Shown piece after piece: positions 16,922-46,337 of a DNA stretch of 64,000 nucleotides. Under the pieces are notes generated by a model. It saw only the letters and a list, made by a program, of their open reading frames with translations. It was not told the origin of the DNA and made no database searches. The position numbers and the translations under genes were made by a program. This DNA comes from a virus (Duplodnaviria > Caudoviricetes), in the IMG/VR virus record IMGVR_UViG_3300021185_003947; one strand, given 5' to 3'. The stretch's first letter is position 1, and each line of letters opens with the position of its first letter.

Positions 16922-18952
16922 TTACCTTAAATTCGGATATTGCAAATCTTCCATTGCACCAAATGTTGGATCATTTACAAACCATCTTGAAAATTCATGA
17001 TCAACTGTTGGCTTAGGTGGATAGAAATATATGTCCGGTACTTCCATTTCACCGTAATCAAAATCAGGTACAAACGCAATCAATGCTAACAATTGTGCTT
17101 GAATTATCATTTGCTCCTCAATTGTATCTGCGTTGTCTATTTTCTTTCTCAATCCTTCAATTTTAGCTGCAACCAATGCCTTAATCTTTTCTGTTCTACT
17201 ATCCTTTTTTTCTTTTTCACTGGGCTCTGGCTTTTCTTCTTTTTTCACAGGTTGAGTAGCATCTTCTTCAGATTCAATGGTTTCGTCGGCATCTTTATCC
17301 TCATCTACTTCTTTATCATTTCCATCACCATCTTCAGAGCTAGTATCTTCCCCAGTGTCTTTTTCTTCTCCGTCATCACTCTCGGACTCGCTCGATTCAT
17401 CATCGGATGATTCCTTACTTTTTCCATCAGTATCGGATCCAGATCCGTCATTCTTTTCTGGCTCGGCTGGTTTTTCTTGCGACTCCGACTTTGGCTCGGA
17501 TCCAGACTCTCCTTTTCCTGAATCTCCTCCTCCATCTCCTTCGCTTGAGTCGGAGGTATTTGATTCAATAATTTCTGTTTCAGTTCGTCCATTTGATGAA
17601 TCCTCCACTTGTAATTCTATTTGAGCTATTTCTTGTTCTATAGATTCTGTACTAATATCACTTACAGCCGGAATTTCTTCTACAATTATTGGTTGAGGAA
17701 TTATAACTGGTTGAATAATAGGAATATCTGGCACTACAGTAACATTTAGTTCAGCAATAGGTTGAGATGTAATATTAGTTTCTGCTAATATTTCTTCTAT
17801 TGACTCTGGAGCTGTTACTGCTACATCACTTTCTGTGCTAGGAGCAATATAATTCGGACAACCCAGATCATATTGACTATCTAATTCACATTGTTGATTA
17901 TAATAAGCAACCTGATATAAAGGACAAGATGGTGAATATAATTGATCTATATTACATTGTTGATTAAGATATGCTGTATCATATCCTGGACAACCAGAAT
18001 CATATAAAGTATCAGCCTCACAGGCTTTATTATAAAGATATGCTACATATGCTTCTGCATAACCCGGACACGTAGGATTATATAAAGTGTCTAAATCGCA
18101 TGGATTATTTCTATATGTAAACCACATAGATCCATCTTTTACTACAGGACCATAATACCCGTTCCATTGTCCATTGTCTTGTGCAGTTGTAACAAATGTA
18201 ATATCACCTAATTGTGCTGGCGTATAAATTGTTCCAGATCCTGTAAGGTGATTAAATATTTCCATATAGTCTTGTTCTACTTGCCATACAGATCCACCTT
18301 CTACTTCTTCATTTGAACTATGAGCGTTTTCCTCATACCAACTATACCATGTATCATAATTATAGGTTTTAGTTTTTACCACATTTCCTGCAGCATCTGT
18401 TAAAGTAACAACAATATTTAATGTATCTAGCTGGTCAGCATATTCACCAGTAGCTTTCATATTCTCATCAAGTCGACTTGAAATATTAGTATCACAATAT
18501 ATTGTAGTACCATCTGATTTAGTTACGTTAAAACACCCATTAATATATTTCCAGCTATAGTGTATTTTATCTAAACTTATTCCAGTACCAGCATCTGAAA
18601 GAGCTTCATTTATAGCCATTCCTAATGCAAAACTATCGGCGCATGGTCCCCATTGTAAGGCATTTCCACCCCATGTATTACTAGTTGAAGGTATTAAATT
18701 TAAGTGTGTTGATCCACCTACACATGAACCCATTGTCATAGTGCCATCAGTAAGATCACCGATTTCTGGACTAGTTGTTATTGATCCATCATTATTTGTC
18801 ACGTACGTAGGTGCACCACCAGAAGAGGTCGGTGTACTTGCAGATTCTAAAACTAAATCTTGAGAGCTAGCCGGCCGCGGCAAGCAAAAGAAGCATAAGA
18901 AGAGCACCGCCAATAGCACTTTTGCCAGTATCCCATTGCCTTTTCTGAACAT
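16922..18952 (-). CDS. Exported protein with four Cys repeats (CxxDxxYxxxCPxY) and a long acidic linker
   Basis: Signal-like N-terminus; repeats such as CDLDTLYNPTCPGY and CEADTLYDSGCPGY; D/E/S/K-rich region. Confidence 0.7.
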   Translation of the reverse strand: MFRKGNGILAKVLLAVLFLCFFCLPRPASSQDLVLESASTPTSSGGAPTYVTNNDGSITTSPEIGDLTDGTMTMGSCVGGSTHLNLIPSTSNTWGGNALQWGPCADSFALGMAINEALSDAGTGISLDKIHYSWKYINGCFNVTKSDGTTIYCDTNISSRLDENMKATGEYADQLDTLNIVVTLTDAAGNVVKTKTYNYDTWYSWYEENAHSSNEEVEGGSVWQVEQDYMEIFNHLTGSGTIYTPAQLGDITFVTTAQDNGQWNGYYGPVVKDGSMWFTYRNNPCDLDTLYNPTCPGYAEAYVAYLYNKACEADTLYDSGCPGYDTAYLNQQCNIDQLYSPSCPLYQVAYYNQQCELDSQYDLGCPNYIAPSTESDVAVTAPESIEEILAETNITSQPIAELNVTVVPDIPIIQPVIIPQPIIVEEIPAVSDISTESIEQEIAQIELQVEDSSNGRTETEIIESNTSDSSEGDGGGDSGKGESGSEPKSESQEKPAEPEKNDGSGSDTDGKSKESSDDESSESESDDGEEKDTGEDTSSEDGDGNDKEVDEDKDADETIESEEDATQPVKKEEKPEPSEKEKKDSRTEKIKALVAAKIEGLRKKIDNADTIEEQMIIQAQLLALIAFVPDFDYGEMEVPDIYFYPPKPTVDHEFSRWFVNDPTFGAMEDLQYPNLR

Positions 18953-19448
18953 CTGCTTTTGTCTCCGGAATAATTATTGCAGGAATTTTCTTTTTGCCTG
19001 ATGGCTTTTTCCATTCAACCTTTGCGTCTTCACCAATTTTACCATAAATTGGACAAGGTGTTCCTGCCATTCCCATAGCATCGTATACTCTACGGTCTTG
19101 ACATAAGACCGATACTGCCGCAACTTTCATTCCAAAGTCATATAATGTTTTTGATATTTTAAGTCTTTCACAATTCTGATCGGTAACAGTTTCTCCGGTT
19201 GATATACCTAAAATTTGTGTCTGCACTGCTCCCGATATACCAACAGTACACAAGTCTTGAGAACTACCTCCAGCACTTGGAGAAATAGCACTTGGTGGTG
19301 GAGAAATTACAATTGTTCTACCTTTAGAGTCGGTTTTGCTTTTACTATCAGTTGTGGAGTCTATTACAGTTTGTGCATACAAAACAATAGGCTTTGATGC
19401 ACATGCTGCTAGTGTTAATAATATCAATATCAATAGTTGTTTACTCAT
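18867..19448 (-). CDS. Putative lipoprotein/membrane protein, Cys-rich
   Basis: Lipobox-like LAAC after a hydrophobic N-terminus; PPPSAISP; C-terminal hydrophobic tail. Confidence 0.65.
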   Translation of the reverse strand: MSKQLLILILLTLAACASKPIVLYAQTVIDSTTDSKSKTDSKGRTIVISPPPSAISPSAGGSSQDLCTVGISGAVQTQILGISTGETVTDQNCERLKISKTLYDFGMKVAAVSVLCQDRRVYDAMGMAGTPCPIYGKIGEDAKVEWKKPSGKKKIPAIIIPETKADVQKRQWDTGKSAIGGALLMLLLLAAAG

Positions 19449-19472: not shown

Positions 19473-19480
19473 TATTTATA
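19473..19480 (-). promoter_or_regulatory. Late promoter TATAAATA
   Basis: Exact motif 25 nt upstream of 19448. Confidence 0.8.
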
Positions 19481-19481
19481 C

Positions 19482-19512
19482 AAAAAAAGAGAGCCGGAAG
19501 ACTCTCTTTTTT
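19482..19512. terminator. Bidirectional terminator downstream of tmRNA
   Basis: AAAAAAAGAGAG-CCGGAAGA-CTCTCTTTTTT. Confidence 0.75.
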
Positions 19513-19514
19513 AT

Positions 19515-19890
19515 CAAAAATAAGTACGACTTTTCTGTTGCTAGGTAAGTCGCCAACCCCCTGTGTTAGGCTGCTATTGCAACGTAACCAGATGGAGCAC
19601 AATTATTGTTTGCACTTGTAAAGTTCTTCGCGTTAACCCAGCTTAGATCGGGATAGTCTCCATGTTTCCGTCAACACCTGTCGATCCTATTTCAGCCCCA
19701 TCAAAAAGACACGAATAAGTAATGGTCCAATACGATAATTTTTATATGGATTACCGCTATTGTATCTAAAATCTCCCCATTGAAAAGGTTCTCCTTTAGT
19801 CCAACTTATCCAATGAAAGTCCATTCTTTAGTGTCCTTATGGTGGAGCTGCGCGGTACTGCCCCGCGGTCCAGTATGCATCTAGTTAATA
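19515..19890 (-). ncRNA. ssrA: Circularly permuted (two-piece) tmRNA; tag ANNNCAPSGYVAIAA
   Basis: Acceptor piece ends GCGGGGCAGTACCGCGCAGCTCCACCA at 19840. Coding piece starts GGGGCTGAAATAGGATCGAC at 19699. G3.U70 pair present; tag at 19566-19613. Outer ends are approximate. Confidence 0.92.
19687..19824 (-). CDS. 45-aa ORF in the tmRNA intervening segment
   Basis: MDFHWISWTKGEPFQWGDFRYNSGNPYKNYRIGPLLIRVFLMGLK; TAAGGA SD; the stop lies inside the tmRNA 5' end. Confidence 0.45.
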   Translation of the reverse strand: MDFHWISWTKGEPFQWGDFRYNSGNPYKNYRIGPLLIRVFLMGLK

Positions 19891-19918
19891 TCATCAACTA
19901 CATAGTATATATAATAGT

Positions 19919-21034
19919 TTAAACATATACAGAATTAAATTGTTGAGTACATCGAATAAATGTAGTACACTTACTTAATTGTTTAAGGTTAGAAGCGCCG
20001 GCATACGTGCAAGTACTACGTATTCCACCAAGAATATCTTGAATAGTATTTTTTATTTCGCCACGATACGGTATCAAAACAGTTCTACCTTCACTCGATC
20101 TGTAATTTTTAAGACCTCCAAAGTGTTTATTATTTGCAGTATCCGAACTCATTCCATAGAATTGTACGAATTGTTTCTCTTCAATCTTTGGCGCATTAGG
20201 TTCTTCAAATACTTCATTTGTAAAATAATGTTTGGTAATTACTTCACCGCCGCCTTCATCGTGTCCAGCTAACATCCCACCAAGCATAACGAAGTCGGCT
20301 CCTGCAGCGAATGCTTTAGCCACATCTCCAGGGCATGTACATCCACCATCAGCAATGATATGGCCTCCAAGACCATGCGCGGCATCAGCGCACTCAATAA
20401 CAGAAGACAACTGAGGATAACCAACACCCGTTTGAATCCGAGTAGTGCAAACACTCCCAGGACCAATGCCCACTTTAACAATATCGGCTCCATTTAAAAT
20501 TAACTCCTGTGTTTGATCTGCTGTAACTACGTTTCCAGCAATGATTACAATTCTGGGATAAAGACTTCTAAATTCTTTTATAAAATTACTAAATCTTACA
20601 GTATATCCATTAGCAACATCAATACATACATATTTTAATTGATCATCAACTTGCTCGTAAACTGTTCTAAACTTTTCATGATCTCGATCACTAATACCAA
20701 TACTCATTGCAGTATATTCAGTACGCAAATTATTATCACTATCAAAATAATCTACAAGATCATTAACGCTATAAGTTTTTACTAAACACGTGAAAGCAGA
20801 TTCAAGTGATAGTTTATCTGCCATTTCAAATGTACCAACACCATCCATGTTAGCTGCCATAATAGGAATACCCTCGTAATTATATGGTGCAGTACTATTT
20901 GGATAATCTGGACTATAATTTAAAAAAGTAAATTTACGTTCTAAATCAACTTCTTTTCTTGATTCAAGCGTGCTTCTTTTAGGACGAATAAGCACATCTT
21001 TATAGTCAAGCTTCATATCATCATCAATGCGCAT
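19919..21034 (-). CDS. guaC: GMP reductase
   Basis: LDYKDVLIRPKRS, CIDVANGY, KVGIGPGSVCTTR and FYGMSS. Confidence 0.95.
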   Translation of the reverse strand: MRIDDDMKLDYKDVLIRPKRSTLESRKEVDLERKFTFLNYSPDYPNSTAPYNYEGIPIMAANMDGVGTFEMADKLSLESAFTCLVKTYSVNDLVDYFDSDNNLRTEYTAMSIGISDRDHEKFRTVYEQVDDQLKYVCIDVANGYTVRFSNFIKEFRSLYPRIVIIAGNVVTADQTQELILNGADIVKVGIGPGSVCTTRIQTGVGYPQLSSVIECADAAHGLGGHIIADGGCTCPGDVAKAFAAGADFVMLGGMLAGHDEGGGEVITKHYFTNEVFEEPNAPKIEEKQFVQFYGMSSDTANNKHFGGLKNYRSSEGRTVLIPYRGEIKNTIQDILGGIRSTCTYAGASNLKQLSKCTTFIRCTQQFNSVYV

Positions 21035-45756: not shown

Positions 45757-46337
45757 AATGCTTGCGCCAATGCTTGAATTCTCATGACATCTACAGAAAT
45801 ATCATGTTTTGGATCATGATGAATAAATTTATCTGCTACATCAGCTGGCATAAATTTATTATTTAAATTAGATCCCCATGCCATGCCATCAATAAGAGAC
45901 CGTGTATCTCTTATGGTCCACCAAGGATATGGTGTAACTTGATCAGTGTCTTTCATTAAAAAATCAAAAAAGATTGGATCAAATGTATTACCTCGAGTAT
46001 AAACTTTTTTAAGTTCATCTGGTCTATTTTCAACAAAGAAATCATATAGTTCAGTAATAGATACATCTTCAGTAGATGGTTTTAACTGATATTGAGCTTC
46101 TTTCGGTTGGTTTTTCCACCAATCAATAGTGCTTTGCTGAACAGATCGACCATATTCTTTAACCTGTTCATCAACATTAAATTTAATCATGTGACAATTC
46201 TTTAACAGTTCTTCATACAAATATGGTTTACTAATAAATCGAGATTCATCAAATGAAAGCATAGCAAATGAAATTACTACACCTTTAACTGGATCTTGTG
46301 ATAAGGTTTCAAAATCGTATACAACTGCATTATCCAT
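45753..46337 (-). CDS. dexA: 3'-5' exonuclease (DexA-like, DEDDh)
   Basis: YDFETL, RGNTFD, RDTRS and HDPKHD. Confidence 0.8.
   Translation of the reverse strand: MDNAVVYDFETLSQDPVKGVVISFAMLSFDESRFISKPYLYEELLKNCHMIKFNVDEQVKEYGRSVQQSTIDWWKNQPKEAQYQLKPSTEDVSITELYDFFVENRPDELKKVYTRGNTFDPIFFDFLMKDTDQVTPYPWWTIRDTRSLIDGMAWGSNLNNKFMPADVADKFIHHDPKHDISVDVMRIQALAQAL

Follow-up and report, generated by a model that had tools for sequence, protein, structure and literature searches.

A small gene under selection in the excised spacer of a permuted phage tmRNA

The DNA analysed here is a 64,000-nt stretch (the window) of IMG/VR record IMGVR_UViG_3300021185_003947, which comes from an uncultured marine T4-like phage related to the pelagimyophages and Melnitz. 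It carries a two-piece tmRNA gene, and the spacer that is removed between the two pieces is filled by a 45-codon reading frame. From the substitutions among its homologues, we conclude that this frame is a real protein-coding gene under selection. We consider it probable that a permissive loop of the tmRNA precursor, clamped by a helix, accommodates the gene and that the gene is expressed from the tmRNA transcript, with the loop serving as a niche and without an obligatory switch. The evidence comes from selection on the gene, a conserved spacer slot and its closing helix, exchange of spacer cassettes between tmRNAs, and the occurrence of the gene next to tRNA-like 3' ends.

Layout of the tmRNA gene, its spacer and the closing helix

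ARAGORN called a permuted (two-piece) alpha-type tmRNA on the minus strand at 19475-19933. Two Rfam models matched above their gathering thresholds, RF04321 (tmRNA_permuted) with 107.8 bits (threshold 47, model positions 1-213 matched) and RF01849 (alpha_tmRNA) with 100.4 bits (threshold 50, model positions 1-355 matched). Read along the minus strand, the gene consists of an acceptor piece with an encoded CCA, the spacer and a coding piece. The acceptor stem forms across the two pieces, where GGGGCUG (19699-19693) pairs with the CAGCUCC that precedes ACCA (19850-19840), and it contains the alanine identity pair, G3 opposite U. The features of the locus are as follows.

19840-19901, minus strand: acceptor piece (T arm, acceptor 3' strand, CCA at 19842-19840), from the RF04321 match to 19901-19566; ARAGORN and RF01849 place its 5' end at 19933-19943
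19700-19839, minus strand: spacer of 140 nt, excised in maturation; both Rfam alignments leave it unaligned, as an insertion that separates CCA from GGGGCUG
19834-19838, minus strand: Shine-Dalgarno (SD) sequence AAGGA, 9 nt 5' of the ATG and within the closing helix; read from the sequence and paired in the minimum free energy (MFE) fold
19831-19838, minus strand: 5' strand of the closing helix, AAGGACAC, spacer positions 2-9; from covariation in 73 phage spacers
19687-19824, minus strand: 45-codon ORF, ATG at 19824-19822 and TAG at 19689-19687; from the ORF listing, homologues, dN/dS and an AlphaFold2 model
19705-19712, minus strand: 3' strand of the closing helix, GTGTCTTT, which doubles as bases of the R-V-F codons; from the fold, covariation and sequence
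19523-19699, minus strand: tmRNA coding piece, 5' GGGGCUG, whose first 13 nt overlap the end and stop of the ORF; from the Rfam alignments and sequence
19566-19613, minus strand: tmRNA tag frame ANNNCAPSGYVAIAA, with a hydrophobic C-terminal end, and stop (19613-19566); from ARAGORN and sequence
19482-19512, minus strand: hairpin followed by a T run, 3' of the tmRNA, terminator-like by eye; from sequence

A preliminary description, made from the letters of the window alone, had claimed that the 140-nt spacer is fully occupied by a TAAGGA-N9-ATG...TAG frame, that its SD begins right after the CCA, and that the first bases of the tmRNA serve as its last codons. All of these details held. The spacer runs from 19839 to 19700 and the ORF, which encodes 45 aa from an ATG start, from 19824 to 19687. 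TAAGGA lies at 19839-19834 with the ATG 9 nt on, AAGGA begins one base past the CCA (whose A is 19840), and the last four codons together with the TAG account for 13 nt of the mature 5' end. Use of the first tmRNA bases as codons is dictated by the reading frame, and all three frames occur across the spacer ORFs described below.

A consensus promoter/terminator scan detected no sigma-70-like promoter immediately upstream of the tmRNA, nor did it call the terminator-like hairpin. Upstream lies a gene of the GMP reductase/IMPDH family (PF00478, E = 8e-68; 19919-21034, minus strand), which may be co-transcribed with the tmRNA, because the gap of ~20 nt contains no promoter-like site. A T4-type late-promoter motif, TATAAATA (19473-19480, minus strand), stands directly 3' of the hairpin and is followed by a gene for a 193-aa protein (18867-19448, minus strand) that has no Pfam match and, by eye, a start resembling a lipoprotein signal. 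The nearest virus record available (G001), a fragment of 11 kb, lacks a tmRNA. Among Logan contigs, two oligo-dT marine RNA libraries from a single study cover the entire 4.5-kb stretch with even depth, and an identical contig extends over 19531-20675, a pattern that DNA carry-over would also give; no RNA ends are visible in these contigs. Joints over the spacer (run X9) were considered as processing products and rejected; their letters differ, and they represent related tmRNAs with short spacers.

In 97-100% of 73 unique phage spacers, base pairs join positions 2-9 of the spacer to positions -6 to -13. Many compensatory types occur among these pairs, slid controls score far lower, and the helix is kept in all ORF-bearing spacers. 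The predicted fold continues the acceptor stem into a hairpin, whose apical loop holds the gene. The SD of the window (AAGGA) forms helix positions 2-6, opposite the R-V-F codons. Since it is base-paired in the MFE fold of the precursor, initiation would be hindered once the helix forms. The larger subfamily of homologues has its SD at the helix edge, in positions 10-14. The region of the window folds better than its shuffles (z = -3.2).

Selection on the spacer gene and its predicted product

An alignment-based scan found 52 IMG/VR loci that encode the peptide, and in the protein collection 26 clusters, all without names, carry it. The preliminary description had named stops or frameshifts in homologous spacers as the observation that would speak against a gene, and a conserved frame with dN/dS below 1 as support. 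Such disruptions were sought, and the frame was open in 51 of the 51 loci that show the ORF whole; the remaining locus is cut by a contig end. The ORF starts 15 or 18 nt past the CCA in 45/45 loci that show the CCA. Over the 36 central codons of 25 distinct nucleotide sequences, the variable columns at codon positions 1, 2 and 3 numbered 5, 9 and 24, and mean dN (0.078) and mean dS (0.58) gave a ratio of 0.13. Two peptide subfamilies are separated by an in-frame 6-nt indel; AAGGA stands 9 nt from the ATG in the window and GAGGA 4 nt from it in the other subfamily. The conserved core of the peptide ends at RVF. The tail encoded by the tmRNA is variable and sometimes absent, and the stop falls at +13, at +7 or within the spacer (L148 type). 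Linkage to a tmRNA spacer, which the preliminary description also proposed to check, is not universal: free-standing copies exist.

A profile search against 1.84 billion representatives returned 43 clusters at E below 0.001, of which 41 (at 50% identity) were credible; hits to a giant RTX protein and a yeast mating-factor precursor were discarded as repeat artefacts. The credible clusters encode peptides of 41-112 aa, mostly 41-59 aa, and share an aromatic and glycine-rich motif that ends in Y-R-x-G-P-L-L-I-R-V. In the isolate phage collection, neither the region nor the peptide had a match by DNA or tblastn search.

With 45 sequences, AlphaFold2 predicted a four-strand beta-meander (pLDDT 92.3, pTM 0.69), in which only the last five residues, the tmRNA-encoded tail, are weak. 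Alignment depth matters for this result, as 17 close sequences gave an unusable model (pLDDT 52). On this model, we predict with confidence that the product of the spacer gene is a four-strand beta-sheet protein of ~40 residues. The 45-aa peptide had no Pfam or PHROG hit, and its best PDB sequence match had an E-value of 0.78. For the model, the best Foldseek E-value was 1.7, the best VIA match (Z = 4.1) was a generic one to single WD40 blades, and ESM Atlas matches were to parts of larger proteins only.

Phage tmRNA spacers as an exchangeable slot for small genes

A scan of IMG/VR for the conserved alpha-type 5' end gave 120 phage loci, and the same scan of bacterial genomes gave another 120. 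The 107 unique bacterial spacers had a median length of 30 nt (range 3-83 nt), all 107 being shorter than 90 nt, and the 107 unique phage spacers had a median of 84 nt (range 8-294 nt). A sense ATG ORF covered at least 75% of the spacer in 32 of the 50 unique phage spacers of at least 90 nt. By contrast, an antisense ORF of the same kind was present in 4 of these 50, and dinucleotide shuffles of the long spacers contained a mean of 2.7 ORF-filled spacers (maximum of 8 in 200 rounds). Thus, spacer-filling ORFs are more frequent than expected by chance. ARAGORN or Infernal confirmed complete tmRNAs around the spacers tested.

Most of the 32 ORFs begin 12-23 nt past the CCA, usually with an SD in front. 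They form 22 sequence clusters, whose peptides include some that are membrane-like, some very basic and some Cys-rich. In families B, C and D of these ORFs, dN/dS was 0.05-0.29; family E is a single pair with saturated synonymous sites. The stop was TAG at +13 in 12 ORFs, TGA at -1 in 11, earlier within the spacer in 7 and at +30 in 2, so that 14/32 stop past the RNase P site and 18/32 within the spacer. A second IMG/VR scan with a cyano/beta-type 5' end pattern recovered mostly one-piece host tmRNAs and 15 permuted candidates, one of which had a spacer-filling ORF that by eye resembles the peptide of locus L004.

Melnitz, a cultured phage of OM43, likewise has a long tmRNA spacer with an SD and a 54-codon ORF (MZ577097; L299:597-761, ~46096-46260 of the record), and this ORF extends 30 nt or more into the mature tmRNA. 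Four Melnitz GenBank records annotate solely SsrA over the spacer, and the locus tags skip from 86 to 89. The C-terminal part of the Melnitz spacer ORF resembles the spacer peptide of L083.

Other long spacers (74-157 nt, mean GC 0.41) form a second class, which lacks an ORF and looks structured; it comprises L014, L018, L041, L048, L053, L066, L098, L106 and L293:409-505 of roseophage DSS3_MAL1. T-arm-like motifs (GGTTCAATTCC or GGTTGAAGTCC) occur in some of these ORF-less spacers, which matched no Rfam family. The DSS3_MAL1 spacer is GC-rich and 97 nt long, and Mosig has a short spacer. At L106:3125-3352, a manA RNA motif (RF01745, 65 bits) and a tRNA directly adjoin the phage tmRNA.

In some pairs of loci, the spacers are 98-99% identical and the acceptor and coding pieces just 66-75% identical. 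Synonymous sites are identical too, which implies recombination and not selection on the peptide, and this pattern indicates that spacer cassettes are swapped between diverged tmRNAs. By sequence comparison, the crossovers fall in the conserved tRNA-like segments. L148-type loci and L154 have a second, resident spacer after the cassette. A further copy, with both helix strands and GGGG, lies before another gene and outside any tmRNA (L160:2955-3145). The 14-bp direct repeat that flanks it, ATGATGGAAACCTA, suggests insertion by something other than homologous exchange.

The gene also occurs outside the spacer. L133, closely related and syntenic, has it free-standing between the GMP-reductase stop and the tmRNA, whose own spacer is a different, non-coding one. 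Ten distant members of the family were examined for their context. One (L418) lies 14 nt upstream of a tmRNA, and two (L420 and L424) are one or two small genes upstream of a tmRNA. Two more (L416 and L422) are in phage tRNA clusters, where they start 9-10 nt past the CCA of a tRNA-Ala and the SD immediately follows that CCA. Another lies ~950 nt from a tRNA, and the remaining four belong to replication or integrase modules; around these, the stretch read contains no stable RNA. Starts right after the CCA of both tRNA-Ala and tmRNA hint at a general "tRNA-end" niche for phage micro-genes. ARAGORN also called a 101-nt tRNA with a four-base anticodon (tacc) in the tRNA cluster beside the peptide homologue (L416:1130-1230 and L417:1144-1244); this tRNA could be of an intron-containing or frameshift type.

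Proposed expression from the tmRNA precursor and relation to known systems

We propose that the closing helix, of at least 8 bp, would keep the tRNA-like domain foldable, so that the loop would tolerate any insert and act as an exchangeable slot for small genes, with the conserved tRNA-like sequences on either side as recombination arms. The gene would borrow the tmRNA transcript for its expression. A selected gene nested in an excised spacer implies that the precursor must act both as mRNA and as stable-RNA precursor, and one transcript is probably both; this supports the dual-function RNA envisaged in the preliminary description. Productive translation must use the unprocessed, unfolded precursor, because the ORF of the window ends past the RNase P site and has its SD and 3' codons in helices. 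Translation would most likely take place on that precursor and probably during transcription, as the SD would emerge ~120 nt ahead of its pairing partner; initiation before the 3' helix strand is made would be the simplest route. After termination, the closing helix and acceptor stem would refold, and RNase P and 3' trimming would then free the two tmRNA pieces. We infer that the position of the gene reflects a niche beside tRNA and tmRNA ends rather than an obligatory regulatory switch.

A ribosome on the ORF and a folded processing substrate cannot coexist, because the SD is in the closing helix and the stop in a strand of the acceptor stem. The mutual exclusion of translation and maturation claimed in the preliminary description therefore stands for each molecule in the window, but it does not extend to a conserved design, given the stops, SD positions and free-standing copies of relatives. 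A sharper form of this idea is a coupling switch, in which translation of the ORF and maturation of the tmRNA would compete on each precursor and the peptide would accumulate only at low processing or trans-translation capacity. In support of such a switch, the mature 5' end includes the TAG of the window (19689-19687), the closing helix and acceptor stem take up its SD and last sense codons, and the stop is past the RNase P site in 14 of the 32 spacer ORFs. Where the stop codon is 3' of that site, the processed spacer would be a non-stop mRNA. E. coli arfA offers a precedent: as described in PMC10107115, its non-stop mRNA arises by cleavage of a 3' hairpin and its product is controlled by trans-translation. 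The stop codon of the window would similarly be lost by processing at the tmRNA 5' end. However, loss of the stop is a property of the window sequence and not of its relatives, in which stops at +13, +7 or within the spacer accompany variable tails after RVF. Moreover, 18 of the 32 spacer ORFs stop within the spacer and all three frames are used, and the gene has its own stop where it is free-standing (L133, L418 and the tRNA clusters). In contrast to arfA, the peptide has no rescue-factor features. We consider a coupling switch quite unlikely, and tagging and destruction of a non-stop product by trans-translation, by analogy with arfA, just as doubtful; an obligatory switch is unsupported.

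The finding that six of the ten distant relatives lie within ~1 kb of a tmRNA or tRNA raises the possibility of a functional tie to these RNAs, which would count against a mere niche. The peptide might act in tRNA or tmRNA biology (processing, charging, protection from tRNA-targeting defences or trans-translation) and be kept adjacent for that reason. Three distant members abut such a gene within 14 nt, two of them after tRNA-Ala, whose identity the tmRNA mimics, and for scale, the window has a single tRNA-like gene, with ~4% of the window length within 1 kb of it. Against this reading, the other four of the ten are in replication or integrase modules without a nearby stable RNA, the linked cases amount to about four independent arrangements, and the fold and family searches gave no hint. 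In addition, 21 other peptide clusters, membrane-like, very basic or Cys-rich, occupy the same tmRNA slot, which implies that the site rather than a function is shared. We regard a role in tRNA or tmRNA biology as unlikely. A further version, which we hold to be unlikely, is that phage tRNA-like genes, the tmRNA precursor foremost, are punctuated messengers, with an SD right behind the CCA that is usable only before the helix forms and about one round of synthesis per precursor until it is locked and processed, and that the peptide acts on tRNA-Ala or tmRNA biology, for example on trans-translation in infection. If so, these genes would form a new class whose dose is set by stable-RNA biogenesis. 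It is extremely improbable that no protein is made and that the conserved spacer is a structured RNA, with the ORF a by-product of base composition or RNA constraints. In its favour, both ends of the ORF are under constraint, from the closing helix and from the 5' end of the tmRNA, and the region folds better than shuffles. This reading is nevertheless disfavoured by the three-base periodicity of substitutions and the dN/dS of 0.13 in the 36 central codons, the in-frame indel between subfamilies, and the excess of sense over antisense ORFs (32 vs 4). It is the peptide, moreover, and not the nucleotides, that is kept, to 35-50% identity, in contexts without a tmRNA, and coevolution among the sequences suffices for a model with a pLDDT of 92.

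Small ORFs stand between the tRNA genes of T4 tRNA clusters, and mitochondrial transcripts are punctuated by tRNAs. As in these systems, the spacer gene is a coding segment bounded by tRNA-like structures whose processing could free it; unlike in them, the flanks of the tmRNA spacer are halves of one RNA and pair across the gene. The two-piece permuted tmRNAs of aquatic T4-like phages (Melnitz and the pelagimyophages) have been published (PMC9004378). The window resembles them in its alpha-lineage RNA, its phage group and the position of the gene among early or metabolic genes; that paper covers the tmRNA and a glutamine riboswitch and does not mention a spacer ORF. Intervening sequences in the 23S rRNA of Coxiella burnetii contain the S23p ORF, whose expression is questioned by the authors (PMC4990558). 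Both systems place an ORF in a stem-closed segment excised from a stable-RNA precursor. The 23S element is an rRNA element with a single ORF family, in contrast to the tmRNA spacer, with its many families and clear purifying selection. Group I introns with homing-endonuclease genes interrupt the tmRNA T-loop (PMC11915505) and likewise nest a foreign gene in a tmRNA gene that is absent from the mature RNA. However, such introns are self-splicing and their protein explains their own mobility, whereas the spacer gene depends on tRNA-type processing and its 45-aa beta-meander has no nuclease features. Within permuted intervening sequences, the same 2025 tmRNA database paper records a repeat element as well as a gene for tRNA-Ala, and no protein-coding spacer (PMC11915505). 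In agreement with the preliminary description, which knew of no such arrangement, the searchable literature, where earlier tmRNA papers are only partly covered, yielded no description of protein-coding tmRNA spacers.

The spacers of permuted tmRNAs have been treated as disposable. Because annotation pipelines put no genes inside stable-RNA features, small spacer proteins are systematically missed, even in Melnitz, which with its OM43 host provides a laboratory system for testing spacer ORFs. With its covarying helix and conserved tRNA-like arms, the slot lends itself naturally to the exchange of small phage genes. If the spacer gene is translated, a single transcript would serve as messenger as well as precursor of a ribosome-rescue RNA, which would raise the question of how ribosomes and RNase P share one molecule.
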